DNA from: Vulcanimicrobiota bacterium
Lineage (GTDB): Bacteria > Vulcanimicrobiota > Xenobia > Xenobiales > JADMJV01
Length of the DNA: 64,000 nucleotides
Assembly: GCA_050250895.1 (NCBI GenBank)
Contig: JBFWNU010000008.1
Location: 224,001-288,000, forward strand
Direction of reading: 5' to 3'
The first letter of the stretch is position 1. Each line of letters starts with the position of its first letter. Shown in pieces: positions 17,345 through 36,289 of the stretch. The notes beneath the pieces were generated by a model. The model had not been told where the DNA came from. It was given only the letters and a program-made list of their open reading frames with translations, and ran no database searches. The position numbers and the translations under genes are program-made.

Positions 17345-17466
17345 TTGCTCTCCACGGGCGGAATCGAACCAAATCCTTTCATTACAGGCATTCCCGTGTG
17401 TCTTCGTAGCATTCGAATCGCTTAGAATCAAGTTGAATCGCCCTACTGATCCCTCATTGGTCCCCC
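17345..17466. repeat. Degenerate second att site (tRNA-Arg 3' fragment plus arm-like site)
   Basis: TTGCTCTCCACGGGCGGAATCGAACC matches the tRNA 3' end at 25/26; TGATCCCTCATTGGTCCCCC matches the element arm repeat at 16/20. Confidence 0.75.
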
Positions 17467-18430: not shown

Positions 18431-18478
18431 TTGGTCTCCACGGGCGGAATCGAACCGTCGACCTACTGCTTAGGAGGC
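18431..18478 (-). repeat. att core (duplicated 3' part of tRNA-Arg)
   Basis: TTGGTCTCCACGGGCGGAATCGAACCGTCGACCTACTGCTTAGGAGGC is identical to 36213-36260. Confidence 0.97.
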
Positions 18479-18594
18479 TAATTTTTACCGTTTCGTCCTG
18501 TCTGGTCACGTTCTTGCAAACCCCGTCGTTTCTAGCTTTCTCGAGTCTTGTCGTGTCGTCTTGAGTCGTCCTGTTTCGTCGTTTTTCGTCCTGT

Positions 18595-18614
18595 TGATCC
18601 CCCGCTGATCCCCC
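18595..18614. repeat. Integrase arm-type site candidate (second copy at 36145-36164)
   Basis: TGATCCCCCGCTGATCCCCC is identical at both inner ends; preceded by 10-bp-phased TCGTC repeats. Confidence 0.8.
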
Positions 18615-18664
18615 GATGGCCTCGGAACCGTGACTTCGCCACCGCTTTCGCCTATGCTATCGAG

Positions 18665-19072
18665 GTGTTCGTCGACGGAAGTCTCGCCTACGTGGATATG
18701 AACTCGGGTCTGGACGGGTGGCGCGCCCTAGCGGCGGCCGTAGTGGTTCAGGCTGTGCATGACCTCGACCTCGCGAAACGGAACCTGTTCGAGGGCAGGA
18801 GGTGGCCGTTCAGACCTTTGAGGCCCGGCCCGTTCGAGGCGGCCAGGGCCGAAGCCGAGCTGCTCGAGTTTGCCATCGAGACGGCCGACTGGTTCACTAG
18901 CCGGGATAGCAGCTTCGAACTGCTGGCGGCCCAGCTCGGGCCAGGGCCTGGCCAGGTGCGCGACCAAATGAAGCTCACTTGTGAGGAAGTCGCCACCGAG
19001 GCCAGGCGCCGGTTGCAGTCCAACCTGGCCGCGATACTCGACACCGTCCAGAGACGCTACAAGACTCGATAG
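18665..19072 (+). CDS. Phage-type hypothetical protein
   Basis: RALAAAVVVQAVHD...DWFTS motif resembles small helical phage proteins; start uncertain. Confidence 0.65.
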   Translation: MFVDGSLAYVDMNSGLDGWRALAAAVVVQAVHDLDLAKRNLFEGRRWPFRPLRPGPFEAARAEAELLEFAIETADWFTSRDSSFELLAAQLGPGPGQVRDQMKLTCEEVATEARRRLQSNLAAILDTVQRRYKTR

Positions 19073-19116
19073 ACGCCGCTGGGGATTGACCCACTACACT
19101 TCAGATCTGCCGCCAG

Positions 19117-19659
19117 TTGTCACCGGCACCACGCTTTGCCGCCAGTTCTGGGGACAAGAAGGCCCGGGCCCTGGCGCGCCGGATGACCCAGTTTGGCCTG
19201 TCTCAGACGCAGATCGCTGAGGAATACAACCGGTCGCAGGGGTGGGTAGCGAAGCGTTTGGCTCTACTGCCCGAAGAACAAAAACCTGCAAAAAAGCCGG
19301 AACTAGGTGGTAGGCCATCCCTGGGGGAGGTTATTCCCCGGGGAATAACCTCCCCAAAGCTTGCCGCCGAACTTCGTTCCGCTCCGGCTGAAACCCAGGC
19401 CGCCGTCGCCAAAGCCGTCGAGGAGCACAACCTCTCCACTCGCAAGACGAAGGCGCTGGCGGATGCGCTCAAACAGGTCGAGCCTGCCAAGCGTCAGGAG
19501 GTGGCTAAGATCGCGGCCGCCTCCCCCCGAACCTGTTGCTGTGGCTCAGGCCGCAGCCCCGTGGTACACGGCCGATGGCTAGTCCATCTCGTCGAGACGG
19601 TGCCATGTGTTGCGTATCGCCCGGATGTCGTTCTCGATGTCTTCGAAGTGCGTCTGTAG
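19117..19659 (+). pseudogene. ParB/Spo0J-like HTH fragment
   Basis: GLSQTQIAEEYNRSQGWVAKRLALL HTH; no ParBc N-domain, no clear start; 3' end overlaps the opposite gene. Confidence 0.6.
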
Positions 19660-20142
19660 CCACGCGGCGTTCTCTCCGACAGGGCGGCTCGCGCGAAGCT
19701 TGGCCTCAAGCTCGGTGGTGGCCCTGAGGCCCTCCCGGAACTGGTCCATTGTCTCCAGATAGGCATTGCAGGCAGCGGGCGAGTTACCTGGCATACTCTT
19801 GTCGGTGGCCGTAACCATCGACAGCAAGAGCACGCACTTCTGCCGCAGCAACTCGTTCTCGGCGCGCATCAGTTCGATGGCTTCAACTCGCGCGGCGCTC
19901 TCGCGCGAAGGCTCGAAAGCCTTGAGTTCGTCGATAAGTGCCTTCCTCGCGTCAGTGTCATCAGCTGCGCGTTCAGCGATGTCTCGGAGCGGCATCTTCT
20001 CATCATTCTTCTCGACCACGAGCGAGGCCTGAATCATCTTCGCGTCGCGCTCGAGAACCTCGTTGACTTTCCGGTCTAGGCCGCTGTTGCAGCCGACCAG
20101 AATGAACAGAAAGAGGAAGATGAACGAACGAAGAACTGACAT
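19579..20142 (-). CDS. Lipoprotein, helical
   Basis: Lipobox ILVG-C after a hydrophobic core. Confidence 0.8.
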   Translation of the reverse strand: MSVLRSFIFLFLFILVGCNSGLDRKVNEVLERDAKMIQASLVVEKNDEKMPLRDIAERAADDTDARKALIDELKAFEPSRESAARVEAIELMRAENELLRQKCVLLLSMVTATDKSMPGNSPAACNAYLETMDQFREGLRATTELEAKLRASRPVGENAAWLQTHFEDIENDIRAIRNTWHRLDEMD

Positions 20143-20187
20143 TCTCGCTTCTTCGATGGGAAGCCACGTTTGCCCCCTCTGTGACCG

Positions 20188-20583
20188 CTAAGAGTCCGAA
20201 GTGGACGCGCCGGGCGTCACCCTTGCCGCGGCCGCAATCTTCTCACAGTGGCTAGGCCTCGGCACTCTCTCACCGGTCTCCCACCGGGCAACTGTTACCC
20301 GCGAGACCTCGAGCACGTTCGCGAACTCGTCTTGAGTGAGCCCGAGCTGCCCTCGCACGTGACGGACCCAGGTTGCCGGGTCGGGGTGCGGCTTCGGCCC
20401 AGTGTGCGCCCACAGCTCGGCGGCGACTCGTTTCGCCACTGACCCAGCGTCGACGGGGTCCCCGTGGGCATTGCGAACGTCCTTGATCGCACCCGAGATA
20501 AGGCGCTTCAGGCGTTCTTGAAATTCGTGTCGGACCGGGTCACCCACCAGAGGATTGTAACCTCCTCGGTAGCCAAGTGGCAA
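20188..20583 (-). CDS. XRE-family HTH regulator
   Basis: LGLTQDEFANVLEVSRVTVARWETG; true start probably near 20543. Confidence 0.85.
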   Translation of the reverse strand: MPLGYRGGYNPLVGDPVRHEFQERLKRLISGAIKDVRNAHGDPVDAGSVAKRVAAELWAHTGPKPHPDPATWVRHVRGQLGLTQDEFANVLEVSRVTVARWETGERVPRPSHCEKIAAAARVTPGASTSDS

Positions 20584-20623
20584 GCCCTGATGGTTGACGT
20601 AGTGCTACAATCCAGGTTACAAT
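20554..20623. promoter_or_regulatory. Back-to-back sigma70-type promoters
   Basis: Plus: TTGACG(20594)-N18-TACAAT(20618); minus: TTGCCA-N18-TACAAT. Confidence 0.7.
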
Positions 20624-20634
20624 GGTGAGGCCAA

Positions 20635-20702
20635 GAGGGTTCCGCAGGTGCGGGGCTGGCCTTTCCGGCCAAGTTCTCGGGTTCGAGTCCCGACGCTCTC
20701 CA
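20635..20702 (+). ncRNA. tRNA-like structure (non-canonical D arm) in the 5' leader
   Basis: Perfect T arm TCGGG-TTCGAGT-CCCGA; acceptor-like GAGGGT/GCTCTC; TGGC-CTTTCCG-GCCA arm; ends CTCCA. Confidence 0.6.
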
Positions 20703-20724
20703 CAAAACACAGTGGAGGTTTTCA

Positions 20725-21327
20725 ATGTCACAAGCAACGCAGTGCGCCGCATATCGCGGCGGCACACCCCCTTCTTCCCCCAACGCAGAGTTTCTGTCGA
20801 AGCTCACGTCTGACGACTTCCTTCTTTTTGATGCGATTGTCTGCGCCCTGGCCGGCCGGCTTGGCATCCACCCGACCGAGCTGATGATGCTTCGTTTCGG
20901 GTCCCCCGACCTGATGGTCAGGGAGTCCATCTCTCATCCGCTCGTTCGTCGCGTCTGCAAGAATCTCGGAACAACAGAGGAGCAGCTGGTGGATACCCTG
21001 CGTGCAAATGGCTGGCTACCGGCGAGCGCCGGCGAGTGGCTCCGGCGCCGGAACCTGCCGACCCGTTTCCGTTGCGACTCGGAGTGGTGCGGCTCTACGG
21101 TCCGTGAACCGAAGGAGGACGTCGACGATGGAGAGGCCAGCGTCTTCCTGGAGGACCAGTTGGCCAGCGCGAATCCCAATTACTGTTGCTGGGACTGGCG
21201 CTCTTGGGCGGGAACGGTAGAGGAAGCCATCGCGACGGCGGGCGAGGAGATTCGCGAGCGCGACAGACAGGCCCCGCCCGCGTTCTGGTTCGACCCCATC
21301 CGAGAGTTGGTGAGCCGCAATGCGTAA
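20725..21327 (+). CDS. Hypothetical protein, paralog A
   Basis: GGAGG RBS; DAIVCALAGRLGIHP...PPAFWFDP shared with the next gene. Confidence 0.85.
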   Translation: MSQATQCAAYRGGTPPSSPNAEFLSKLTSDDFLLFDAIVCALAGRLGIHPTELMMLRFGSPDLMVRESISHPLVRRVCKNLGTTEEQLVDTLRANGWLPASAGEWLRRRNLPTRFRCDSEWCGSTVREPKEDVDDGEASVFLEDQLASANPNYCCWDWRSWAGTVEEAIATAGEEIRERDRQAPPAFWFDPIRELVSRNA

Positions 21328-21886
21328 GCCATTCACTCCGCCTACAAGCTCCGAGAACCTAGCTGTGATGCAGACCATCACGCCTGACGAACTCGCCCGC
21401 CTGGATGCGATCCTCTGCTCCATCGCTGGCCGTCTCGGCATTCACCCGTGCATGGTGGCCGAGCTGCGCTACGGCGAGCCACCGGCGACAGGAGCGGACG
21501 CTGAAGCGGCCTTCCAGCGGAACCTGGACGGTGAAGACGAGGAGGTCACCGAGCTGTTGGTCGACCGGGGCTGGATACCCGAGACCGTGGCCGAGTGGCT
21601 CAATCTGCGCTATCAGCCCACCAGGGTCAGGATGGAGTCCGAGTTTTGCGCCTCGCCCGTGTTCTTCCCTGGGCCCGACGACGACCCTGGCATTAGGACT
21701 CTGCTCGACGACCAGCTGGTTAGCGCCACCTTCGACTTTGACCGCTGGTGGCTGACGACGGCCTGTGGCGACACGCTCGAAGAGGCTCTCGCGGCCAAGG
21801 TGGACGGCCCCCATCGGAAGCGCCGGGATGAGGCTTGCCCGCCCGAGACGTGGCTTGACCCGCTGTTGGTCGCCTCCCTTCGCTAA
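21320..21886 (+). CDS. Hypothetical protein, paralog B
   Basis: DAILCSIAGRLGIHP...PPETWLDP; 8-bp overlap with paralog A; GC hairpin at 21901-21925. Confidence 0.85.
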   Translation: MRKPFTPPTSSENLAVMQTITPDELARLDAILCSIAGRLGIHPCMVAELRYGEPPATGADAEAAFQRNLDGEDEEVTELLVDRGWIPETVAEWLNLRYQPTRVRMESEFCASPVFFPGPDDDPGIRTLLDDQLVSATFDFDRWWLTTACGDTLEEALAAKVDGPHRKRRDEACPPETWLDPLLVASLR

Positions 21887-21946
21887 CTCCTCCTCCTACC
21901 CAGCGGGGCCTTCGGGCCCCCGCTGCTGCATTTGAAAGGATTCACT

Positions 21947-22375
21947 ATGTCTGAACCTCGTGTTGGCTGGCTCGTTCTCCGCCGAGACCGCGGCTGCAAG
22001 CTTCTTGATATTCCCGGACTCATAGACCTACCAGTGTATTCCAGGTCTCGTTACGCGATTGAAGGGGGACAGGATCTGTTCATCAGCCTGTTCCGGTATT
22101 ACCACGCCACGGCCGACATGACGCTGGATCACATCGTCGGCTACATCCAGTTCCTAGACGACGTCCTCGATGGACGGTGTCCCAACGGGGACGGACGACG
22201 CACGAATCTCGATGGGGCCAAGCGCTGCCGCGCCAGGCGAGGCGACGGCAGCCGTTGTGGGGCCCGCGCGCTGCCGAACAGCGACTTCTGCCGACACCAT
22301 CAGCCGCCCAAACCAGCCAAGTCTGCGGACCAACTCATCGCCGAGCTGGTGGCCGCCCTCGGGGGTGCCCGATGA
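21947..22375 (+). CDS. Hypothetical protein with C3H zinc-finger-like motif
   Basis: RCRARRGDGSRCGARALPNSDFCRHH; AAAGGA RBS; ATGA overlap with the recombinase. Confidence 0.7.
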   Translation: MSEPRVGWLVLRRDRGCKLLDIPGLIDLPVYSRSRYAIEGGQDLFISLFRYYHATADMTLDHIVGYIQFLDDVLDGRCPNGDGRRTNLDGAKRCRARRGDGSRCGARALPNSDFCRHHQPPKPAKSADQLIAELVAALGGAR

Positions 22376-23313
22376 TCCAGCTCGCACACGCCACCACAGC
22401 CCCGCATTCGCCCCAGGACGGCCTTCAGCCGGTCCTCGACTTCCAGGGGCTTACCTTCGAGTTCCTCAGACGCCTGGACCGCTCCCAGGAGACGGAGAGG
22501 ACCTATCGGTCGGCCCTCGGCCTCTTCGGTGCCTGGGCGGCCCAGCAGGAGGCCACAGAGGACCTGGCGGGCCTGGTCCTGGCCTACAAGCAACACCGAC
22601 AGGCCACCGTGGCGCCGGCGACGGTGGCTCACGACCTGGCCGTCCTCCGGCGCTTCTTCGGCTGGCTGGTGAAAACCAAGCGCCTGGCCGAGAACCCCGC
22701 CGAGGACATCCGGCCCCCGAAGATGCCCCGCGGCTATCGGCGCGACGCGCTTACCCTGACCCAGGCCATCCTGCTCTTCGCCGCGGTCGACCCGACCACG
22801 CCGGCCGGCCGTCGCGAGATGGCCATCCTGTGCCTGATGGTGCGGGCTGGCCTGCGCGACGTGGAGCTCCACCGGGCCGACTTCGGGAACCTGGGCACAG
22901 TCGACGGGCAGCGAGTCCTCTGGGTGCACGGGAAGGGGCGCGAGCAGGCCGACGAGTTCGTCCTCCTCAATCGCAAGACGCGGGAGGCCCTGGACGCATA
23001 CCTTGCCGACCGAGCGCCGCTCGAGCCTGGCGACCCGCTGATCGCGTCGCTGGACGGGCGGGGCCCTGGCCGGCTCACGACTCGCCAGATTCGCCGCATC
23101 GTCACCGCGGCGCTCGAGCGGGTTGGCTTCAAGTCGGCCCGGGTCACGGCCCACAGCCTGCGCCACACGGCGGCCACGCTGGCGATTCAGGCAGGCTCGT
23201 CCCTCTCCCAGGTGCAGGCGATGATGCGCCACGCGGACCCGAGGACCACCTCGAGGTATGTCCACCTGCACGACCGTCTCGAGAACGCGGCCGAGAAGGC
23301 CCTCGACTTCTAA
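22372..23313 (+). CDS. Second tyrosine recombinase (XerC/D-like)
   Basis: GLRDVE, GKG, HSLRH, MRH, SRY catalytic motifs; core-binding region with NPA. Confidence 0.93.
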   Translation: MIQLAHATTAPHSPQDGLQPVLDFQGLTFEFLRRLDRSQETERTYRSALGLFGAWAAQQEATEDLAGLVLAYKQHRQATVAPATVAHDLAVLRRFFGWLVKTKRLAENPAEDIRPPKMPRGYRRDALTLTQAILLFAAVDPTTPAGRREMAILCLMVRAGLRDVELHRADFGNLGTVDGQRVLWVHGKGREQADEFVLLNRKTREALDAYLADRAPLEPGDPLIASLDGRGPGRLTTRQIRRIVTAALERVGFKSARVTAHSLRHTAATLAIQAGSSLSQVQAMMRHADPRTTSRYVHLHDRLENAAEKALDF

Positions 23314-23365
23314 GAAGGTCCGCCAACGCCGGTTACCAGTCACGAGGACGGGGGATAGACAGGTC

Positions 23366-23704
23366 ATGGACGTTGCCAGAGAGGACCTCGACGAATGGCT
23401 GACCCAAGGCCGTGTGGTCGGCCGCGGCCAGTTCCGCGGCAGGTTGGTCGAGGTCACCTGGTCGGATGGGCACATCACTGCCGACGCTGATGTCTTGGAG
23501 GCGTTACGGGAGGCCGAGCGGCGGAATCGCGACAAGCCGATAGGGCATCCCCTGGGGCCGTGGAGCCGGCGGGACCACCTTCGGGCGTCAGACGGGTTCT
23601 GCGTGATGTGTCACCAGGCGCTTACCGATTGGGAAATGCTGGTGGTCGAGCAACCGCCGCTGTGGCCACCGGGGGAAGAGCCTGGGCCCGAGGCGGTTTT
23701 CTAA
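23366..23704 (+). CDS. Hypothetical protein
   Basis: ORF with plausible composition, convergent with the next gene. Confidence 0.55.
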   Translation: MDVAREDLDEWLTQGRVVGRGQFRGRLVEVTWSDGHITADADVLEALREAERRNRDKPIGHPLGPWSRRDHLRASDGFCVMCHQALTDWEMLVVEQPPLWPPGEEPGPEAVF

Positions 23705-24057
23705 CCGCGGCGTTCGCGGGCTTCCCGGGTAAATTCGCCGGTGGCTTCGATTTTGTAGAAGGCGGTCTGGACCGCCTCAACCGTCGCTCGGGCGGCCAGG
23801 TCGGTGACCAGCTGGTCTAACGTGCGGCCAACCTTCACGCCGGCGATGATCGCGGCATCGAGTTCTTCGGCGGTGAACGGCACGACCGCCGGCAGCTCGG
23901 CATACTCGACCGAGACGCCGTCTCGGGCCAAGCGCTTCAGAGCCCTGAGAGCCCGCCAGCCAACACGGTCAGCAAGCGCACTCACTGCGACCAGGTCCCC
24001 CGCCCGAAAAAAGCGGCCAGGAGTCTGCACGTCTTTGAGGATGCGGAACGCTTGCAC
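23701..24057 (-). CDS. Hypothetical protein
   Basis: GGAGG RBS before GTG; last gene of the tape-measure operon. Confidence 0.7.
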   Translation of the reverse strand: MQAFRILKDVQTPGRFFRAGDLVAVSALADRVGWRALRALKRLARDGVSVEYAELPAVVPFTAEELDAAIIAGVKVGRTLDQLVTDLAARATVEAVQTAFYKIEATGEFTREARERRG

Positions 24058-24061
24058 CGGT

Positions 24062-24931
24062 CTACCTCCGAGTAGCGCGGTCAATCTCGCGCTGGGCGTC
24101 CAGGGCGCCCCGCTCGATGACGGCCCGAGTGTTTGGCGAGTTGAAGTAAGGTGCCTCACGGCGGTTGGTCATCGTCTGCCCGTAGCGTTTGAGCCGGTCG
24201 TGAGTGACCAGGGCTTCTCCGCGGGCGAAGTGCCGTTCGGCGACCAGCTCGGCCACGGCGGCCATCCGACGAGAGAGTTCGTCATCAAGTTTGGCCAGGT
24301 GTTCCTTGGCGGTCTCGAAGGCCTGCAGTCGCGCTTCATACTCGGTCTGCTCGGCGTGCCGGCGTTTCTCAGTCTCGATAGCGGCCTTGCGCTGACGGAC
24401 CTCGGCAAGCTTGGCTTGCCGCTCGGCTTCGCGCCTGTCGGCCTCGGCGAGCTGATGCTCGAGTCTGTCGAGTTCTTCAAGTTCAGTCTCGAAGGTCATG
24501 GTCTGCTCCAAAAAAGGGCTCGGGGCGTCGTGATTAGGACGATTGACTTGACCACGTGTTTCGACGACGACGCCCCGAGCGGCCCGATGGAAATTCGATG
24601 CCTGTGTGCCATCATAGCGTAACCGGGTGGCGTCGTCACCTTCGGCGTAGTGGGTCGGCGCCGGTCGGGGCACTACATTCGCCACCTGCTCGGCCAGTTC
24701 GGCCCGCTCTGTTTCGTCTTCGACCAGGTCGGTGAGCCAGTGGTCGACATCGGCCCAGAAACCGGCGCAGGCCTCCGGGTCGCGCCGGTCGACCTCATGA
24801 ATCGTGGCCAGGACCTTGACGCACCGGCGCCGTGGCCCGACACCGGGAACCCGCTCCGAGGCGCTCAGGACGGCCGAGAGGGCCATCCCGTAGGGTTCCT
24901 CTCGCTCGCGATGTTTCCAGACAATGAACAT
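24062..24931 (-). CDS. Hypothetical protein; C-terminal coiled-coil part has its own RBS/ATG at 24499
   Basis: GGGAGG RBS upstream of 24931; GGAG-N6-ATG at 24499; E/R/A-rich heptads. Confidence 0.7.
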   Translation of the reverse strand: MFIVWKHREREEPYGMALSAVLSASERVPGVGPRRRCVKVLATIHEVDRRDPEACAGFWADVDHWLTDLVEDETERAELAEQVANVVPRPAPTHYAEGDDATRLRYDGTQASNFHRAARGVVVETRGQVNRPNHDAPSPFLEQTMTFETELEELDRLEHQLAEADRREAERQAKLAEVRQRKAAIETEKRRHAEQTEYEARLQAFETAKEHLAKLDDELSRRMAAVAELVAERHFARGEALVTHDRLKRYGQTMTNRREAPYFNSPNTRAVIERGALDAQREIDRATRR

Positions 24932-24973
24932 GAGCTTGCCTCCCGTCGTGTCCGCCAATGACGCTTCTTGGCC

Positions 24974-25405
24974 CTATCCGCGGTCTTTCCATCCAAAGAC
25001 TGGTTCGATTCGGTTCACTTCAGCCATTCCTGGCTTGTGGGAAATCGAGACTTTGGCTCCCACCTGGTCGCCGTCGAAGAAGTCTCCCCAATATCCCTTG
25101 AGCAGGACTTCGGCCGGCCAGGATGCGGCCGCGGCGGCAGCTCGAGCCTCGCGGATAGACATCTCACGGTCAGCCTCGGCGTACTCCGAGTGGGGGAGCA
25201 CGGGTGGTTTGAGCGACGGGCCCATAATCGCTTCCGTCCGTTCGTCCCACGAGCCCTGAAACTCGGCCTGCGCCATCGCAGCTCCCGCCAGGGCGATGAG
25301 GTCGTGATAGTCCCAGCGCCCGTCGAGCGGCTCGATAGGGCGTCCCTCACGCATCGCGGTGAGCCACTCCTCCAGCATCTGCCGATGAACCACCATGCCA
25401 GTCAT
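24974..25405 (-). CDS. Hypothetical protein
   Basis: ATGA overlap with the tape-measure gene; GGAGG upstream. Confidence 0.7.
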   Translation of the reverse strand: MTGMVVHRQMLEEWLTAMREGRPIEPLDGRWDYHDLIALAGAAMAQAEFQGSWDERTEAIMGPSLKPPVLPHSEYAEADREMSIREARAAAAAASWPAEVLLKGYWGDFFDGDQVGAKVSISHKPGMAEVNRIEPVFGWKDRG

Positions 25406-29028: not shown

Positions 29029-29031
29029 GTC

Positions 29032-29409
29032 TTACCGCGCCCGACTATCGGTCTTGGCGGACCCTTTTCGGTTGGCCTCGGGGATGAAGAGAGCCAGGCG
29101 CTCCACTTCGTCGGTTTCGGTCTCGACGGCCCGACGGTGGTCGGAGCGGTTGGCCTTCGGAATGGAGCGCACCATGCGCTCCTCGTCAGTCTCTACCCGC
29201 TCGAACGTCTCCCGCCCGGGCTGCCGCTGGAACGTTTCGACCTGCCTCCCTCGGTTGGCCTCGGGAATGTAGCTCATTAGTTCGGCGACCTCTTGCTCGC
29301 CGGCCTCACGCGAGAACTGGCGTTTCAGCTCTTCAGTCCGCTTTTTGAAGGCGGCACGCTGGTCTTTGATGCTGTCCAATGTGGTTGACTCCTCTGGATT
29401 TTCTTCCAT
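29032..29409 (-). CDS. Small charged protein with three IP(E/K)ANR repeats
   Basis: Three ~30-aa repeats; start at ATG 29409 or TTG 29379 (GAGGAG RBS); ends 3 bp before the tape-measure start. Confidence 0.75.
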   Translation of the reverse strand: MEENPEESTTLDSIKDQRAAFKKRTEELKRQFSREAGEQEVAELMSYIPEANRGRQVETFQRQPGRETFERVETDEERMVRSIPKANRSDHRRAVETETDEVERLALFIPEANRKGSAKTDSRAR

Positions 29410-30013
29410 TGTAGCGGGCGGGAGGGGCCGCACGAAGCCCTCCCTTGCCCTCCCTGCGAATTGGGGCACTACGGGGGGAAGCGCCGGTCGACGTGGAAAG
29501 CGCCTCGGCCGCCCAGGGCACGCCACCCCCCGCTGTGCCCGTTGGGCGGCTTTCCACGAGCCGACCCGGACGCGACCGAGATCGAGCCCGTCATCGCCGG
29601 CACCTACTGAGACTATTCCGCGCGGAATAGTCTGGCAACTGAAGGTCAGGACCACCATGCGCTGGGGGCCACCAGGGGTCTGGATAGTTTCCAGACCCCT
29701 GTCAGGGGAGCCTACAACGCAGGCTCCCTTCTCTACCCCTTCGACGAGGCCGGCCGCACCCAGCAGCAGCTCGCTGACGTTCTCGGGTGGGCCAGGACCA
29801 AAGTGGCGAACTATGCTGCACTCCAAAAAATCCACTCCGAGGCCTGGGAAATCGTTGTCACCACTTTCAATGCACCCGGTGACAACTCTGAAGAAGGATC
29901 GGTGACAGGCAATGTCACCACGGTGACATTCACCGAGCGACTCCTTCGGGACATCCTCCCCCTGTCCCCGGACCAACAGACCGAGCTGTGCACCGAACTG
30001 GCCAGTGGCGCGA

Positions 30014-30622
30014 TCAACCCCGACCACCCTGGATGGCTACCAGCTTCGGGCCGGCTGACTGCCTCCGCTCGAGTTCGGCGTTGACCTCGGCCAGAATGCG
30101 GCCGAGAATCTGAACGTCGAGAGTGAGCGCCTCGGAGAGCAGGCGCAGATCGTGCTCGGATGGGCAAAGACTCCAGCCAGGATCGTCCCCTTCGTCCAGG
30201 CGCACCCTGTAGAAGTAGGCGGCCTTCGAGAAGCGGCCATAGCACTTGTGGTAGTTCGTGGCCACCAGGTGGGCGGGCGTGTCTAGCCAGGGATTCCGAG
30301 CGGAAGCCTCTCGCCGGTGTTCGTGGTCAGCCCTAGCTCGCTCAGCGGACTTGGTAGCCGCCTCGATGGCGGATTCTCCACGCATCGTTCTCGAGAAAGA
30401 AAGCGGCGTGGCTGCCTGGGCCACCCCCACCGGGTCGGGCGAGCTGACCGCGATGTCAGCCACCTGCCGGCGAAGGCCGGGCTCGACGCGGCGTAGGTGG
30501 CCCGCGATCAACCCGAGCTGCCGCGTGTTGATGCGGCCGTCCTCGAAGGCCTGCTGGATAGGCTCCCTGGCCTCGGCTGGCAGCGCCTCCAGGTGTCTCA
30601 TTGCGGTCTTGGTCGTCTTCAC
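30014..30622 (-). CDS. Protein with ParB post-HTH-like helical region
   Basis: AGGAG RBS; N-terminal ~65 aa aligns by eye with the fragment at 19117-19659. Confidence 0.7.
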   Translation of the reverse strand: MKTTKTAMRHLEALPAEAREPIQQAFEDGRINTRQLGLIAGHLRRVEPGLRRQVADIAVSSPDPVGVAQAATPLSFSRTMRGESAIEAATKSAERARADHEHRREASARNPWLDTPAHLVATNYHKCYGRFSKAAYFYRVRLDEGDDPGWSLCPSEHDLRLLSEALTLDVQILGRILAEVNAELERRQSAGPKLVAIQGGRG

Positions 30623-30643
30623 TGGGCGTTTTCTCCTTTGGTT

Positions 30644-30856
30644 TTAGTCTGGATTCATGAACAGCAGTAACTGTCCGTAATCGGTCGTTTCGGTGGTCGG
30701 TGAGGGAGGGAAAGGGAGGGTTCCCTCGGGGCTCGAGACGGCCGCACAGCGCTTGCATTCGACCCAGGGCTCGCCCGGCTTGGCGCCTGGGCCGGTGGGG
30801 TCGACGACCGCGGCCGAGCGGGGAGTGACATCGCGGCGGCAATACCAGCACTTCAT
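30644..30856 (-). CDS. Small zinc-finger protein
   Basis: CWYC...CKRC; GAGGA RBS; ATGA overlap with the initiator. Confidence 0.65.
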   Translation of the reverse strand: MKCWYCRRDVTPRSAAVVDPTGPGAKPGEPWVECKRCAAVSSPEGTLPFPPSPTTETTDYGQLLLFMNPD

Positions 30857-31779
30857 GCGGTCCTCGCGGTGGCCACGTTGAGGATTGGGTAGGCCGGTTC
30901 GGGGTCGGGCTCGTCAAGAATGGCAAGCAACTGCTCTCGGGTATTTGGGAGCCAGTAGCGATGAGGTCGTTTCCCCTCTCTCGCGAGTTGACCCGCACGC
31001 TTTGTAGCTTCGATCAGCCGGGCCTTGGTCCACTTTTTCGTTTTTGCCCGCTCGACGATCTTGGCGAGTCTTGGCATCTCCCTCGCTACGATCTCCTCCT
31101 CGACTTCGAAGCCGAGGTTTTGGATTATCAACTGCTCGACCAACTGAAGAGAATCGGGGGGGTCCTCCCTTATTTGCCCCCGGGTTATTTCTAAGGGTTC
31201 TTTATAAGGGTTATTTAGAGAGCCACTTTCGCCTTTTCCCGTAAGGCTTTGCGGGGGGGCTAGAGTCCGGTGGGCCGAACCCTTGAGTCCGGTGGGCCGA
31301 ACCCTAGAGTCCGGTGGGCCGAACCCTAGAGTCCGGTGGGCCGAACCCTGGGGGTCGCTAGGGTTCGGTGGACCGGACCCCCTCACCGGAGTTTCTGTGG
31401 GTATTTTTCCACGTCGGGGATAGCACCACTCATCGACGTATTTGTTCGGGCCGATGGTCCGGCTCTGCGTCCCGACCGAACCCTTGAACTCGATGATGAC
31501 ACGGTTGGCAATCAACCGCCGCAATGCGTCGCTGACGCTCGACTTGCTCGCACCTGTGCGCTCCGCCAGCAAGTTGACGCTCAGATCGGCCTTGGTCTTG
31601 GGCGGGGCGTCTGGGTTGTTACCTGGACGGCGTCCGTAGGTTTCGCGCACGATTGCCAGGACCAGCTGGAGGTCTAGGCCCGGCATCTTGTGAGCGGTCA
31701 ATGCCTCCAGGAAGAAATGCTTGTATTGGCCATAGCCGCCCGGGCCGGCGGAGGCCAACGCGTCTCTAGCATCACTCAT
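30853..31779 (-). CDS. Phage replication initiator (lambda O-like)
   Basis: LAIVRETYG, wHTH, GPNKYVDEW; internal iterons. Confidence 0.85.
   Translation of the reverse strand: MSDARDALASAGPGGYGQYKHFFLEALTAHKMPGLDLQLVLAIVRETYGRRPGNNPDAPPKTKADLSVNLLAERTGASKSSVSDALRRLIANRVIIEFKGSVGTQSRTIGPNKYVDEWCYPRRGKIPTETPVRGSGPPNPSDPQGSAHRTLGFGPPDSRVRPTGLKGSAHRTLAPPQSLTGKGESGSLNNPYKEPLEITRGQIREDPPDSLQLVEQLIIQNLGFEVEEEIVAREMPRLAKIVERAKTKKWTKARLIEATKRAGQLAREGKRPHRYWLPNTREQLLAILDEPDPEPAYPILNVATARTA
31260..31347. repeat. Four 22-bp iterons (replication origin)
   Basis: CT(A/T)GAGTCCGGTGGGCCGAACC x4, a partial inverted copy at ~31360-31380 and an adjacent AT-rich tract at ~31185-31217. Confidence 0.92.
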
Positions 31780-33077
31780 AGGGGCACCTCCAAACTGCCT
31801 TGCTGGTCTTCCTCGGCTCGGTGGTCTGGCGCCGCGTGCAAAGCCTCACGGAAGGTGTAGGTCGGCCCATCGAATCGAAGCTGGACCTCTCCCGTAGGCC
31901 CGTCTCGGTTCTCTGAGATGGTCAGCGTGGCAGCCTTACCGGTCCGCTTGAGTAGCCAGATTTTGTAGGCGTCTTTTTGGAGCTGGCGCCCGCCGGGCAG
32001 GTCGTCGCTGGTCGGGTCGCCCTTCATTTTTCGGTCAACGACCTTGAACTGCTCGATCACCAGCACAGGGATGCGATGACGCATGGCCAGGTCGTGCACG
32101 GCTCTCGAGGCCTCAGCCACGTCCTCCCATTTCGCCACTGAGGCATATCGGCTCAGGTAGTCGATGCAGACGCAGGCGAGGTTCGGGTGTCGGAGTCGGA
32201 ATGACTCGACTATGCTGATTAAGCCTCGGAAGTCGGTCGCGGCGTCGTGGATGTACAAGCCTCGAGACCGAAGCCAGTCCTCTCCTTGCCAGAGGTGGCC
32301 GTCGGTGAGGTCGGAGTAGGGTCGTTTGAGGTGCTGGACGATCACTCGCTCGACCACGGCCCGCCGGTCCATTTCGTGGGAGCACCAGAGGACGGGGGCA
32401 TCAGGTCTTGCCATGTTGGTGGCCATCTGTAGCCCGAGGCTTGTCTTACCGTGTTTGGGGAGGGCAGCCAGGACGACCACCTCCTGGCTACCCAGGCCCC
32501 GGCAGTGATGGTCCAGCGACGCGAAGCCGGTCGCCAGCCAACGTTTTGCGGTGGTCTCGTCAGGCTTGGCCCGCTCCTCTGCTAGCGCGCGGGCGACGTC
32601 GGCCGCATTCACAGGGAACTGACGCTCGGACCCTGCCATGGCTCTGCTCCAGATGGAGGACACCCTTTGCTTGCGCTCCTCTAGTGGCAGGGTCAAGTCC
32701 CTAAAGACTGTCTGACAACGTTCTAGGGCGCGGGTCCCTCGCCGCTCAAACGAGCGTTCTCGGACGAGGTCGACCATCGTTTCGACCTCTGCCCCCGTGG
32801 CCATTGCGGACGCCAGTAGCAGCTGGTCAGACGCTTCTCGATCGCCGTGGTCGACCATGATCTGCTGGAGCGCCATCGGCCCCGGCTCGAACCCTCTCTT
32901 GAGCAGGCTAGTGAGAGCGACGAGCCCCTTTCGCGCGACGCGGTCGCCAAAGTCGTCGGGATTGAGCTGGGTTACGACCAGGACGGAAAGGCGCTCATCG
33001 TGGCAGCTCGACGCGATGAGTTCGCGCTCGAGCTCGTCGTGAGCGATGAGACGTAGTTCGGTGGGTGTATAGCTCAT
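31776..33077 (-). CDS. DnaB-like replicative helicase (divergent)
   Basis: N-terminal ELERELIA; Walker A ALPKHGKT; SHEM; CIDYL; NRDGPTG. Confidence 0.88.
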   Translation of the reverse strand: MSYTPTELRLIAHDELERELIASSCHDERLSVLVVTQLNPDDFGDRVARKGLVALTSLLKRGFEPGPMALQQIMVDHGDREASDQLLLASAMATGAEVETMVDLVRERSFERRGTRALERCQTVFRDLTLPLEERKQRVSSIWSRAMAGSERQFPVNAADVARALAEERAKPDETTAKRWLATGFASLDHHCRGLGSQEVVVLAALPKHGKTSLGLQMATNMARPDAPVLWCSHEMDRRAVVERVIVQHLKRPYSDLTDGHLWQGEDWLRSRGLYIHDAATDFRGLISIVESFRLRHPNLACVCIDYLSRYASVAKWEDVAEASRAVHDLAMRHRIPVLVIEQFKVVDRKMKGDPTSDDLPGGRQLQKDAYKIWLLKRTGKAATLTISENRDGPTGEVQLRFDGPTYTFREALHAAPDHRAEEDQQGSLEVPL

Positions 33078-33386
33078 CAGCGCCTCCCCCAGGCTACTCG
33101 CCTGCGGGCCGGCACTACACGCCACCGTAGGCCTGGCCGTTGCGTTGGTAGGCTACGGGGTGGTATGCTGCTAGTAGTCGTAAGAGATACTGGGCTGGCG
33201 CCGCCCCTCACGGGGCGGCGTTCGCTTTTGTAGGGCAATTGATGCGCTCCATTCGTCGGATTTGATACCCCGGTGGACGGACCTCGCTGAGCGCAGCGAG
33301 AGGCCTCTCGCACGGCGGTGTTATCGGGGCGCCGACCCCCGCGTCGTTACTTGAGTCCCCTTCAAGTTCGTTGGCAAAAAAAAGGC

Positions 33387-33635
33387 CTACTCGGCCAGGC
33401 CGAGCAGACGCTCGAGCTTTGCTCGCGGCACCAGGATGCGACGGCCTACCCGGATACTCGGGATGCTACCGTCCTTGATGCCAATGTAGGTCGCGCCCTT
33501 GGACAAGCCAAGTATCTTGGCTGCTTGAGCCACCGAGTAGGTGGCGGGCTTGGGAGTCGGTGGGGGAGCTGGTTGGCCGGCCGGATGTGGCAGCGGCAGC
33601 GATAGGACTTTGGCGGGGCCGTTGTGGTTGTGCAT
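33387..33635 (-). CDS. Excisionase-like HTH protein
   Basis: TYSVAQAAKILGLSKGATY...IPSIRVGRRILVP. Confidence 0.9.
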   Translation of the reverse strand: MHNHNGPAKVLSLPLPHPAGQPAPPPTPKPATYSVAQAAKILGLSKGATYIGIKDGSIPSIRVGRRILVPRAKLERLLGLAE

Positions 33636-33868
33636 CAAGCGGCCACCGTGACTTCGACGATCAGGTCCCGGAGGGCGATGCCCGTCTTTTCGGACAGTGC
33701 CCAGAGCATGGCGACGGTGACGTGACAGTATCCGTGCAAGTGCGCATAGAGCGTGCGGTGCGGCACTCCGATCTGAGCGGCCAACCATTTGTAGGTGCGG
33801 CGCTCCTCCTCTTTCCAGGCGTCGAGCGCTCTCTTGTTCAAGTGAAAGCGGCGGTCCTTCAGTTTCAT
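33635..33868 (-). CDS. Cro-like HTH protein
   Basis: WLAAQIGVPHRTLY; AAGGAGG RBS; divergent from the repressor. Confidence 0.8.
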   Translation of the reverse strand: MKLKDRRFHLNKRALDAWKEEERRTYKWLAAQIGVPHRTLYAHLHGYCHVTVAMLWALSEKTGIALRDLIVEVTVAA

Positions 33869-33915
33869 GTAAACCTCCTTCTTGCATCTGGCTTTGTAGT
33901 GTTAGGCGTAGCTTG

Positions 33916-33944
33916 GTTATAGCAGTCTCGCCCTAAAGTGTCAA
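33916..33944 (-). promoter_or_regulatory. Strong sigma70 promoter for the cro-xis-replication operon
   Basis: TTGACA-N17-TATAAC on the minus strand. Confidence 0.85.
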
Positions 33945-34010
33945 GCTGAGCAGGGTTTTGTCGTCGCCAGTGTAAATCTAGACCTATCAGCACGATAATC
34001 GAGGTGAGAC

Positions 34011-34742
34011 ATGGGGCTTTCGGAGACTTTCGGGGAAAGAGTAAAGCGGGCCAGAGCGGAGAGAAACCTTTCTCAGAGCGGTCTGGCCGATTCCGTGGGC
34101 GTATCGAGGACCACGATCGCGGAATGGGAAGCAGGTCGTTCGAGCCCTGAATTTTCGAGGTTAGAGCCTCTCGCGGAGGCGCTCGGGCGGCCTGTGTCTT
34201 GGTTCTTTCTCCAGGACCAGCCCGGTTCGTTCGCTGAGGTCAGTTCGCGTGACCTGTTCGAGGCTTACCTGGAAGCTGCGGAAGCCTGCGCCGTCCACGA
34301 AAGGCACCTCCACCAGGCCCTTCACGGTCTGCGCAGCGCGCGGTGCTATTTCTCGTTCGCAGCAGCTCACGCGGCGGAGCGAGATGACGGGGATTCTGAT
34401 CTCTATGAACTGCATCGGCGAACCGGATTCCAGTATGAGCCGGCCGAGGAGTTCACGGACGAAAAGTTCGCGGAGAGCCGCTGGCGCCAGTTCACCTGGC
34501 TCACCGGGGTGTCGGAGTCGGTCGATAGAAGTGACGACCTGGAGAGCCTCGCCCTGGCCGGGCCTGACTCCGAACAGCTCGAGGCGAGGCATCTCACGCG
34601 CCTTCTGGCCACCTGTCAGGTGGACCTGAAGGACCTTCCCGAGCATCAGGTTCAAGAAGCGGAGAAGAGTATCCGGGTCTGGCGGGCCGCCCTCAAGGGC
34701 GAAGGGCTGGACGTATTGCAGAAGGAGGAGTCGAAGCAGTGA
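34011..34742 (+). CDS. XRE-family master repressor (Stl/CI-like) with non-S24 C-terminal domain
   Basis: LSQSGLADSVGVSRTTIAEWEAG; coupled to the integrase. Confidence 0.88.
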   Translation: MGLSETFGERVKRARAERNLSQSGLADSVGVSRTTIAEWEAGRSSPEFSRLEPLAEALGRPVSWFFLQDQPGSFAEVSSRDLFEAYLEAAEACAVHERHLHQALHGLRSARCYFSFAAAHAAERDDGDSDLYELHRRTGFQYEPAEEFTDEKFAESRWRQFTWLTGVSESVDRSDDLESLALAGPDSEQLEARHLTRLLATCQVDLKDLPEHQVQEAEKSIRVWRAALKGEGLDVLQKEESKQ

Positions 34743-35899
34743 GAGGTCATATCGAGAAGCGCGGTCCCCAGCGCTACAAGGTGAGAATCTTCCTCGGTCG
34801 GGACGATAACGGGAAGGTCATCCGTCGCTCAAAGACGATTCACGGCACCCTCAAGGACGCCCAGCGGGCATTGACCGAACTCCTCCAGCAGTTCAACATG
34901 AACTGCCTGCCGGAAGAGCACAAGCTCACCGTTGCGGACTATCTCGCCCAGTGGCTGGCCAACGCCGCTGCCGGCCGGGTCAGCGAGCGGACCCTTCGGG
35001 ACTATCGCGGGATGTTCGACCGCTACGTCCTGCCCGAGCTGGGCCGGCTACGCCTCGAGGCGCTCACCCCGATGGCCATCCAGGGGCTCTACACGAAGAT
35101 GGGCCGGACCATCAGCGCCCACACCGGCCGGCCCCTGTCCCCCCGCAGCATCCAGTACACTCACCGAACCCTCTGCCAGGCCCTGAAACAGGCCGTTCGC
35201 TGGCGCCTGCTACCCAACAACCCGGCGGAGCTGGTGGACGTGCCCAAGCAGGTGAAGCGGCAGATGCTGTTCCTCACCCCCGAGCAGGCCCGAGCCTTCC
35301 TGGGCGCCGTCGAGGGCGCCCCACATGAACTCTATCTCGCGTTCCTCCTGTCGGTGGGCTGCCGACCGAGCGAGGCCCGCGGCCTCCAGTGGCGTGACCT
35401 CGACTGGAAGCAGCACACGGCTCAGATCGTGCGCACGGTGGCCGAGACGCGCCAGGGCGCCCGGCAGAACACCTGGACCTTCGCCCCGTGTAAGACCGAT
35501 GGCTCCCACCGAACCGTGTCCATCCCGAAGACGGTGATGGAGCGGCTGCGCTTCCACCAGCGGCAGCAAGAGGCCGAGAAGATGGCCGCCGGCGAGGCCT
35601 ACCAGAACAGCGGGCTGGTTTTCTGCACGACGCTGGGCACGCCCTTGAACCTCTCGAACGTCAAGCGGCGCAGCTTTCACCCCGTCCTCGCGAAGGCCGA
35701 CCTGCCGCGCATTCGGTTGTACGACCTGCGGCACACCTACGCGACGCTTCAGCTCTCGGCGGGGCAGAACCCGAAGATTGTGGCGGAGCAGCTCGGCCAC
35801 TCGTCGGTGACACTGACGCTCGACGTTTACTCGCACGCCATCCCGTCGCTGCGCCAAGCGGCCGCCGAGGTTGCCGAGCAGCTCCTCTGGGCTCGCTAG
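34739..35899 (+). CDS. int: Tyrosine integrase
   Basis: N-terminal arm-binding region; GCRPSE, YDLRH, LGH, VYSH; adjacent to the att. Confidence 0.96.
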   Translation: MRGHIEKRGPQRYKVRIFLGRDDNGKVIRRSKTIHGTLKDAQRALTELLQQFNMNCLPEEHKLTVADYLAQWLANAAAGRVSERTLRDYRGMFDRYVLPELGRLRLEALTPMAIQGLYTKMGRTISAHTGRPLSPRSIQYTHRTLCQALKQAVRWRLLPNNPAELVDVPKQVKRQMLFLTPEQARAFLGAVEGAPHELYLAFLLSVGCRPSEARGLQWRDLDWKQHTAQIVRTVAETRQGARQNTWTFAPCKTDGSHRTVSIPKTVMERLRFHQRQQEAEKMAAGEAYQNSGLVFCTTLGTPLNLSNVKRRSFHPVLAKADLPRIRLYDLRHTYATLQLSAGQNPKIVAEQLGHSSVTLTLDVYSHAIPSLRQAAAEVAEQLLWAR

Positions 35900-36129
35900 C
35901 GTCGCCCCAAAGCCGTCACGTTGCACGTGCAGCGGTAGAGGCTAGCGCTGCTGCGCTCGACCTCAAGCACCGTGAACAGGTGCAATCCGTCTTCCTCATG
36001 ATGGTCAATGAGTCTCTCGAAGGTGTCGCCAGGCTCGGGGGGCTCTTCACACATTTGCTCGACGCAGAGCCGGTCGGCATACCTGTTGTTGGCATAGCCC
36101 GCTGGGATATTGAGGAAAACTTTGACCAT
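35896..36129 (-). CDS. Small hypothetical protein
   Basis: GGAG RBS; convergent with int. Confidence 0.5.
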   Translation of the reverse strand: MVKVFLNIPAGYANNRYADRLCVEQMCEEPPEPGDTFERLIDHHEEDGLHLFTVLEVERSSASLYRCTCNVTALGRR

Positions 36130-36213
36130 TGGCTCCGAATTTGCTGATCCCCCGCTGATCCCCCAAGCCCGATTTTCGCGAGAATGGGGGAGGCGGAAAA
36201 CCGCTTGGTTACT

Positions 36214-36289
36214 TGGTCTCCACGGGCGGAATCGAACCGTCGACCTACTGCTTAGGAGGCAGTTGCTCTATCCCCTGAGCTACGTGGAG
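36214..36289 (-). tRNA. tRNA-Arg(CCT)
   Basis: 76-nt cloverleaf: CTCCACG/CGTGGAG acceptor, ACTGC-CTCCTAA-GCAGT anticodon arm, GGTTCGATTCC, encoded CCA. Confidence 0.97.

Follow-up and report, generated by a model that had tools for sequence, protein, structure and literature searches.

A PICI-like island in a Vulcanimicrobiota bacterium with a tape measure protein as its only recognisable virion gene

Until 2025, phage satellites were thought to pirate complete helper tails. Classical phage-inducible chromosomal islands (PICIs) carry terS, cpm, ppi or rpp and borrow complete tails, cf-PICIs encode capsid, portal, terminase and connectors, and P4-like satellites have an alpha-type primase-helicase, sid, psu, delta and cos; PLEs, which measure about 18 kb, use a serine integrase. 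We analysed a 64-kb stretch of DNA (the window; G+C 63%) from a Vulcanimicrobiota bacterium, in which an integrated island at positions 18431-36260 carries a gene for a tape measure protein (TMP). Work on PLEs has shown the swapping-in of a satellite's own TMP in one family. In PMC12987554 (Nature 2026), the PLEs of Vibrio cholerae are satellites that bring genes for a TMP, a chaperone and a baseplate hub of their own and form chimeric tails, which were shown by electron microscopy, western blot, mass spectrometry and deletion. In the same paper, the PLE TMP enters virions, deletion of PLE tmp cuts transduction by 96-99.9%, escape from a TMP block and efficient transduction both need the PLE's own TMP, and Rta of PLE11 targets the TMP of ICP1; the legend of Extended Data Fig. 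10 of that paper reports putative tmp genes in PLE-like elements and some cf-PICIs. The Tab defence recognises the TMP of the invading phage (PMC10884400). EPIPs of Mycolicibacterium aichiense are described as 11-kb satellites with a TMP, with tails longer than those of the helper (PMC12822802, 2025 preprint). The first-pass annotation of the window knew of no described satellite family with the composition of this island, a claim that falls with the TMP genes of PLEs (PMC12987554) and EPIPs (PMC12822802). Among the papers listed by full-text searching, none dealt with prophages or satellites of the present host lineage.

The island occupies 17.8 kb between exact 48-bp direct repeats. We propose, with a probability of roughly 0.6, that it is an intact integrated phage satellite that puts its own TMP into the tail of a helper phage; that it would depend on a helper, be packaged and have its TMP incorporated is what we infer. 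The following features define the island.

18431-18478: attL, the left copy of the 48-bp repeat, 100% identical to 36213-36260
18595-18614, plus strand: left arm-type pair, two copies of TGATCCCCC 11 bp apart, just inside attL
25402-29028, minus strand: TMP of 1208 amino acids (aa), an uninterrupted open reading frame (ORF)
30853-31779, minus strand: RepO-like initiator (Phage_rep_O E 1.9e-7, above the cut-off; phrog_277 E 5e-11)
31260-31369: iterons, 22-bp tandem repeats in three copies plus a degenerate fourth, within the initiator gene
31776-33125, minus strand: DnaB-like replicative helicase (DnaB_C E 8.5e-29; phrog_19 E 1e-40)
33387-33887, minus strand: ORF whose C-terminal part (~33402-33539) is of the HTH_17 excisionase (xis) type (E 2.9e-9; phrog_66 E 0.0015)
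33635-33868, minus strand: cro-like helix-turn-helix (HTH) protein of 77 aa, first gene of the leftward operon, with weak repressor-family matches
34011-34742, plus strand: cI/Stl-like repressor of 243 aa with an N-terminal HTH_3 domain (E 6.4e-15)
34739-35899, plus strand: tyrosine integrase (PF00589 E 2.5e-18; Phage_int_SAM_3 E 4.6e-10)
36145-36164, plus strand: right arm-type pair, two copies of TGATCCCCC just inside attR
36213-36260: attR, the right copy of the 48-bp repeat, overlapping the 3' part of the tRNA-Arg(CCT) gene
36214-36289, minus strand: tRNA-Arg(CCT) (ARAGORN; Rfam tRNA 63.5 bits)

The sequence TGATCCCCC occurred four times in the 64-kb window, every copy in the two arm pairs, against a chance expectation of 0.76 per window; four copies were reached in 0 of 100 shuffles, and the pairs look like arm-type integrase sites. 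The repressor was divergent from a leftward operon of cro-like, HTH_17, DnaB-like and RepO-like genes, and Pfam detected no S24 peptidase or autocleavage domain in it. The iterons, which the repeat search reported as overlapping 44-nt windows, lie inside the initiator gene and form a putative origin. These domain matches show a control region that is predicted to be lambdoid or PICI-like and a predicted replicon consisting of a RepO-like initiator with iterons and a DnaB-like helicase. Repeat, hidden Markov model (HMM) and tRNA searches confirmed the first-pass reading of the atts, the arm sites, the integrase and the repressor divergent from cro, xis, DnaB and the initiator with its iterons; the genes named in that gene list stood, but a second tyrosine recombinase at 22177-23313 had been missed. 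Judged from the sequence, the description of the element as an intact, att-bounded, PICI-like island holds up. Relatives keep the right flank and tRNA-Arg(CCT), and the left flank is not syntenic. A clean empty attB was not found among the relatives compared, in which the same-genus contig stops before the tRNA. Approximately 1.09 kb to the left of attL, positions 17345-17392 resemble the att sequence at 65%, with 22 identical bases at 17349-17370; Rfam found no tRNA there, and an earlier insertion at tRNA-Arg(CCT) may have left this imperfect copy behind.

The TMP frame contained no stop in 1208 codons, the other five frames contained 19-41 stops, and the chance of such an open frame at the local base composition is ~1e-14. 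In the protein, a conserved N-terminal TMP domain (~residues 100-300) is followed by a long charged helical region; hydrophobic segments lie at 96-115, 321-358 and 391-420, and E, K, R, Q and D together account for 39% of residues 431-1040. Five PHROG TMP families matched the protein, in its N-terminal part only (best E 9.8e-9), and TMP_3 scored 34.1 bits at the island TMP in a six-frame search of the genome. When 50,697 phage records were searched by tblastn, 504 matched, always below 60% identity and over less than 80% of the query; the 20 matches listed were to annotated TMPs, at 27-32% identity and over the N-terminal fifth (roughly 300 aa) only. A sequence search of the PDB with the single TMP found no match, and a search with a TMP profile gave one weak TMP chain (9b45_a, E 5e-4) in addition to coiled-coil matches. 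The best match outside the genome was the 1413-aa TMP of an element on contig G036:C6, with 34.8% identity over 884 aa (blastp, E 4e-115). Because this full-length homologue sits in a phage tail operon after a chaperone gene, we regard the 1208-aa ORF as a genuine TMP; i.e., on sequence grounds, 25402-29028 is a genuine and intact TMP of siphophage type. The uninterrupted tape-measure gene of the earlier description was thus upheld by the open frame and by the match to the G036:C6 protein, and TMP models do recognise the long ORF. Tail length relates to TMP length at 0.15 nm per residue, and at this ratio the 1208-aa TMP would predict a tail of ~180 nm.

In searches of the island ORFs against Pfam and PHROGs, no capsid, portal, large-terminase, tail-tube, baseplate or lysis family was found at E <= 0.01, which agrees with the earlier statement that no genes of these kinds were recognised. 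This absence is stated at the level of profile HMMs, and the structure-level check was made on one ORF (298 aa). The largest island ORF apart from the integrases, helicase, initiator and TMP encodes 331 aa; therefore, none of the unassigned ORFs is long enough for a large terminase or a portal. A hub-like protein was not recognised in the island. At the level of profile searches, the TMP holds as the sole recognisable virion gene of the island.

We compared the island with PLEs by described features. Like a PLE, it appears as an integrated satellite with its own replicon, no capsid gene and its own TMP; a second island in the same genome and an island on contig G018:C67, both described below, also combine a TMP with chaperone genes, in the manner of PLEs. 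Unlike PLEs, it resides in another host phylum, it has a tyrosine recombinase at a tRNA and RepO/DnaB-type replication, and its 1208-aa TMP is of siphophage type, whereas ICP1 is contractile-tailed; no chaperone or baseplate hub was found in it. EPIPs are likewise small satellites reported to encode a TMP, but they measure 11 kb, have a serine integrase and encode a small terminase, head-tail adaptor, stopper, scaffold and major capsid protein (PMC12822802), and none of these virion genes was found in the window island. With PICIs and SaPIs the island shares an integrase and a repressor divergent from a xis-replication operon, a tRNA or fixed att, its own replicon, a size of one to two tens of kb and the lack of a complete virion set; it differs from them in carrying a TMP and in having no convincing packaging gene (best E 8e-4). 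The cf-PICIs are also satellites that take part in virion building, some with a putative tmp according to PMC12987554, whereas no capsid, portal, terminase or connector family was detected in the window island. In contrast to P4, replication in the window island is of the RepO and DnaB type, and the DUF3987-type primase-helicases of two relatives are absent from it; sid, psu and delta were not searched by name. The prophage on G036:C6 resembles the island in a TMP that is homologous along its length, in integration by a tRNA-like sequence and in its host lineage, and it differs in its portal, minor head, protease, major head, neck, major tail and chaperone genes, none of which occurs in the window island. 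By these features, the island is PLE-like in its TMP and PICI-like in its layout, and fits neither PLE, classical PICI, cf-PICI nor P4. Most likely, it represents a family of its own within an uncultured phylum, in which satellites of long-tailed phages encode a TMP, next to the TMP-bearing satellites already known (PLE and EPIP).

A scan of genome contigs with the single TMP protein found no relative, and wider contig scans with a profile from a three-sequence TMP alignment gave relatives of the window TMP at ~35% identity at best. TMP homologues occurred in 15 of the 40 genomes of the host's order, with the window's genome counted. We compared 12 TMP contexts from 10 genomes, comprising ten fetched contexts (40 kb or up to the contig limit, nine genomes) and the two islands of the window's genome; contexts on short contigs or at contig edges were left out (G007:C57, G008:C99, G037:C235, G032:C84, G019:C287, G031:C495 and four hits outside the order). 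Eight contexts were small capsid-less islands, three were phage-like (G036:C6, G013:C30 and G008:C5) and one was an unclear remnant (G016:C192). Direct repeats of 44-86 bp derived from tRNAs bounded seven of the eight islands, and no repeat was found for G018:C38. The seven att-bounded islands measured 13.2, 17.7, 17.8, 18.0, 18.2, 18.3 and 26.3 kb, and a ninth island of 13.4 kb was found at a tRNA-Gln on metagenome contig L154 (2768-16252). Besides the two islands of the window's genome, there are thus six att-bounded TMP islands without a capsid gene, at 13-26 kb, in related genomes and on one metagenome contig. Within 17.7-18.3 kb fell five of the eight att-bounded islands, and this clustering hints at a packaging constraint.

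The islands had in common an integrase, a replicon and the TMP, and the replication genes varied: RepO and DnaB, DUF3987 primase-helicases (G005:C2 and G004:C69) or a DnaG-finger protein. When 78 ORFs from seven other islands were scanned, 55 PHROG families were matched; the 25 best included recombinases, RepO-like, small terminase and protease-type families and no portal, large terminase, tail tube or baseplate, and the other 30 all had E above 2e-6. Five large replication proteins of the relatives were scanned separately. G018:C67 has a clear small terminase (phrog_51 E 1e-11), and protease-like genes were found in G018:C38 (phrog_80 E 2.5e-11), in G005:C2 (ClpP-like, phrog_11747) and in G009:C10 (32% identity over 133 aa to the G036:C6 head protease). 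A 218-aa ORF downstream of the G018:C67 TMP matched both parts of a G- and T-like chaperone pair and appears as a fused G+T-like chaperone. The description "tape-measure-only" in the first-pass annotation was thus kept for the window island at HMM level and lost for the family, some members of which also have chaperones, a small terminase or a protease-like gene. An origin by internal deletion from complete prophages would place the close relatives in such prophages; the nearest TMPs do sit in complete phages, but the relatives of the backbone are small capsid-less islands. From these comparisons, the view that the window island belongs to a family of small islands, and is not a single internal deletion of a prophage, holds up.

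On contig C1 of the genome that contains the window (9.5 Mb, 17 contigs), another TMP homologue lies in a second island (locus L070; G000:C1 ~1949620-1967660) of 17,955 bp between 86-bp repeats at tRNA-Lys(TTT). Its gene order is the same: int, repressor, cro-like, DnaB-like, RepO-like with internal repeats, and TMP. Identities to the window island are as follows.

Integrase: 38%
Repressor: 40%
cro-like protein: 42%
DnaB-like helicase: 28%
TMP: 33% overall, 46% in the first 395 aa

The two initiators gave no blastp match to each other; both match Phage_rep_O, and both islands have repeats inside the rep gene. The same architecture and near-equal size at 28-46% identity indicate that the arrangement is old and has been maintained. 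As cargo, the second island carries a STAND (nSTAND1) NTPase, an N6_N4 methylase fused to an Mrr-like endonuclease and an ImmA/IrrE-type peptidase, and this cargo looks defence-type. The ORF just upstream of its TMP matched the chaperone-position proteins of three phages (E 2e-7, 3e-6 and 9e-6), and a 219-aa ORF downstream of the TMP matched both the G-like and the T-like chaperone parts. Chaperones beside the TMP in the second island and in G018:C67 amount to a ruler plus chaperones, as productive tail assembly needs. In another genome, the phage-like TMP operon of G008:C5 (L033/L034) stands beside a five-tRNA cluster (Pro-Arg-His-Arg-Lys) and host genes. Its flank is syntenic with that of the second island, so that one tRNA cluster accommodates a prophage in this genome and a TMP island in the genome of the window.

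G018:C67 (L027/L028) and L154 share a TMP at ~95% identity, a GT-like protein at 91% and a small terminase at 88%, and differ in replication genes, size (18.3 vs 13.4 kb) and tRNA (Trp vs Gln). The common block appears from sequence to be a clear case of module exchange between islands. In this pair, dN/dS of the TMP (the ratio of nonsynonymous to synonymous changes; Nei-Gojobori) was 0.20 overall with dS of 0.2-0.4, and it was 0.05-0.19 in 200-codon windows beyond the first, in which the ORF starts were called differently. These ratios show an island-borne TMP under purifying selection in the G018:C67/L154 pair. Neutral decay, raised earlier for the window TMP, is thus not what was seen: its frame is free of stops, and a related pair of islands gave a dN/dS of ~0.1-0.2.

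The structural genes of phages of this lineage were recognisable, as the element on G036:C6 demonstrated as a positive control. This element of 25.4 kb is enclosed by 88-bp repeats and adjoins a tRNA-like sequence, and the genes upstream of its TMP matched PHROG families for portal (5e-50), minor head, head protease (4e-24), major head (3e-32), Neck1 (2e-25), major tail (phrog_807, 8.5e-9) and tail assembly chaperone (phrog_344, 5e-5). The order of capsid, neck, major tail, chaperone and TMP was also found in the viral and metagenome contigs L072/L153, L073, L152, L155 and L158. On G036:C6 (L025/L026, contig 14200-41684) few genes follow the TMP, and the large terminase was inferred from homology alone; the element may be a very small siphophage or may itself be incomplete.

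The major-head family phrog_29 gave no match in any of the five island-bearing genomes and was found at both phage control contexts. In the window's genome, PF05065 and PF03354 had no match, and TMP_3 matched only the two islands; phrog_113 (portal) matched in no genome, the positive controls included, and is therefore uninformative. When all ORFs of three phage contexts were compared with the genome by tblastn, only the TMPs, DnaB-like and repressor genes were matched at the two islands. A tree was built from 19 TMPs, of which 9 belong to islands, 9 to phages and 1 carries no label; island and phage TMPs were interleaved in it, with 5 label changes as the fewest and at least 4 forced by well-supported branches. 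Island G009:C10 was paired with phage G013:C30 (support 100) and island G005:C2 with phage L073 (support 98). The interleaved tree indicates that TMPs moved between phages and islands several times, and such a pattern fits satellites that track their helpers or repeatedly capture TMPs from phages.

The islands could instead be prophage remnants, i.e., temperate siphophages that lost their head genes and most tail genes, kept the TMP by chance and are no longer mobile in virions. The location of the nearest TMP sequences in complete phages and the interleaving of island and phage TMPs on the tree would agree with this, as would regulatory and replication modules that are ordinary lambdoid ones and also occur in phages (e.g., G013:C30 with its DnaB-like gene). 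In addition, G016:C192 looks like a true remnant, with a 451-aa TMP fragment and no atts, and the TMP of G004:C69 is split. However, the window island has exact 48-bp atts, arm sites and all core genes intact, and the two islands of one genome (17.8 and 18.0 kb) keep their architecture at only 28-46% identity. Five of the eight att-bounded capsid-less islands have 17.7-18.3 kb, dN/dS of the TMP is ~0.1-0.2 between two islands, and independent deletions are not expected to spare the same 3.6-kb gene while removing the flanking tail genes. We consider loss from a prophage unlikely. In our estimate, it is just as unlikely that the TMP acts mainly as a decoy that poisons helper tail assembly with mis-sized or non-functional tails, and so protects the host population, without serving the transfer of the island itself. 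A 1208-aa structural protein would be a costly means to this end, the G-like and GT-like chaperones of the sister islands point to productive assembly, the narrow size class suggests a packaging constraint, and PLE, the precedent with experimental data, puts its TMP to use in transducing itself (PMC12987554). Nevertheless, TMP recurs as the target or lever of tail-assembly interference in two papers (Tab, PMC10884400; Rta of PLE11, PMC12987554), the window island has no recognisable chaperone or packaging gene, and the second island carries the defence-type STAND NTPase and methylase-endonuclease fusion.

Very improbable, in our view, is a complete temperate phage of very small size with head and tail genes that have diverged beyond recognition. 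In its favour, siphophages as small as 14-18 kb are known, no function could be assigned to ~13 island ORFs, and sampling of the host phylum is sparse. However, no ORF beyond the integrases, helicase, initiator and TMP exceeds 331 aa, and the largest ORF of this kind with a clear coding signature (298 aa) was modelled as all-helical and not HK97-like. For phages of this order, PHROGs readily recognised proteins of portal, head, neck, tube and chaperone type, which makes divergence alone an unlikely explanation.

Several results weigh against the proposal of a satellite with its own TMP. A resident helper phage was not evident in the window's genome by the HMM and tblastn searches. The island lacks a recognisable small terminase, cos or pac site and capsid-remodelling gene; an HMM of chaperones from the family's phages gave no match in six frames of the island, and hhalign of chaperone profiles against nine island ORFs gave probabilities below 1%. 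ORFs adding up to ~2,000 aa of the island have no assigned function. As for the TMP itself, Pfam TMP_3 matched it over 189 of 192 profile positions with E 1.9e-6 and 28.2 bits, where the family cut-off is 41 bits, and its closest relative is only ~35% identical. Purifying selection was measured on another branch of the family, and for the window TMP the corresponding evidence is the intact frame and family conservation. The TMP of the G004:C69 island (L031/L032) is split into ORFs of 704 and 244 aa, which could be due to decay, a sequencing error or a frameshift. Among 500 label shuffles, 94 did as well as the at least 4 forced changes of the tree, and interleaving would also fit repeated decay of phages. 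Finally, the 78 ORFs in the PHROG scan of relatives left out TMPs, integrases, repressor- and DnaB-like genes and ORFs under ~90 aa.

For an island that puts its own TMP into helper tails, we propose the following life cycle. A helper siphophage would relieve the non-autocleaving repressor, Int and Xis would excise the island, the initiator and helicase would replicate it from the iterons, and it would be packaged in helper-made capsids. The island TMP would be built, in place of or beside that of the helper, into tails of helper tube and tip proteins, and the chimeric tails would permit satellite assembly and DNA delivery even when the helper TMP is blocked or mismatched, as shown for PLE. 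The action of Tab and Rta on the TMP suggests why a satellite would carry its own ruler. With such a life cycle, the TMP swap would extend to long non-contractile tails, a distant uncultured phylum and an unrelated island backbone, which would argue for substitution of the tail ruler as a general satellite tactic and not a Vibrio peculiarity. More tentatively, and with the odds leaning against it, the TMP with or without chaperones might be the hallmark module of an unrecognised and widespread class of siphophage satellites, which would borrow heads and tubes and keep their own ruler and DNA-injection conduit; the interleaved tree would then reflect repeated capture of helper TMPs, and ~18 kb would be a fixed fraction of the helper headful. 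On this more tentative view, the TMP rather than the capsid would decide whether a satellite genome can be delivered, and possible reasons would be the evasion of TMP-targeted defences or exclusion and the matching of the genome end to the tail. The islands form a natural comparative series (TMP alone, plus chaperones, plus small terminase, plus protease-like gene) that could help to find the minimal parts for tail hijack, and the TMP is a marker that satellite-finding pipelines do not currently use.

The remaining ORFs of the window island are listed below.

18548-19072, plus strand: ORF of 174 aa with coding-like G+C at third codon positions, no family match
19579-20142, minus strand: ORF of 187 aa with a lipoprotein-like N-terminus (hydrophobic stretch followed by Cys, judged by eye only), no family match
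20188-20583, minus strand: second Xre-type HTH regulator of 131 aa (HTH_3 E 3.8e-12)
20725-21327 and 21320-21886, plus strand: tandem paralogues of 200 and 188 aa with 38% mutual identity (E 1e-31)
21932-22375, plus strand: ORF of 147 aa with a Cys/His-rich motif (phrog_10899, small terminase, E 8e-4, residues 88-123; DUF5763 E 0.0047)
22177-23313, plus strand: second tyrosine recombinase, XerC/D-like (PF00589 E 1.6e-21; phrog_1 E 3.8e-36)
23258-23704, plus strand: ORF of 148 aa, no family match
24062-24958, minus strand: ORF of 298 aa, only weak coiled-coil-type matches
24974-25405, minus strand: ORF of 143 aa with a 4-nt overlap with the TMP gene at its stop, no informative match
29032-30027, minus strand: ORF of 331 aa directly upstream of the TMP gene, no family match
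30014-30622, minus strand: helical ORF of 202 aa, not recognisably a tail assembly chaperone

On the minus strand, the genes run from the initiator through ORFs of 70, 202 and 331 aa to the TMP and then to the 143-aa and 298-aa ORFs. The 143-aa ORF is likely translationally coupled to the TMP. ESM Atlas searches with the two TMP neighbours of 143 and 202 aa returned low-scoring leads only and no usable family, and for 10 island ORFs PADLOC returned nothing beyond generic HTH matches and coiled-coil noise. In the 331-aa ORF, only the last 105-125 codons have a clear coding signature. A 22-nt repeat present three times at 29068-29272 encodes an IPEANR-like motif in its C-terminal part, for which no homologue was found. 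A programmed-frameshift chaperone pair at 30622-29032 was considered and rejected, as frame-wise GC gave no clear support and the chaperone HMMs were negative. The AlphaFold2 (AF2) model of the 298-aa ORF consisted of helices only, including one of ~97 residues, with a mean pLDDT (per-residue confidence) of 69, and as modelled the protein is not an HK97-type capsid fold. The plus-strand ORF at 23804-24622 was set aside, 24062-24958 on the minus strand being the better gene.

In the left arm, the phrog_10899 match of the 147-aa ORF is the sole packaging hint of the island, a weak one over 36 residues of the Cys-rich motif. The second recombinase probably starts near 22372. An ARAGORN call of tRNA-Glu(TTC) at 20633-20701, in the divergent intergenic region, was rejected as a probable false positive since Rfam gave no match at E <= 0.1. 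The tandem paralogues at 20725-21886 showed a weak KilAC/ANT hint (ANT E 0.0019, below the cut-off). A mini-island of 5.1 kb in the same genome (G000:C1:1732730-1737931), between 53-bp repeats at tRNA-Lys(CTT), has a 365-aa ORF by its att, a small-terminase match (phrog_51) and a 323-aa ORF with a domain also present in the 200-aa paralogue of the window island.

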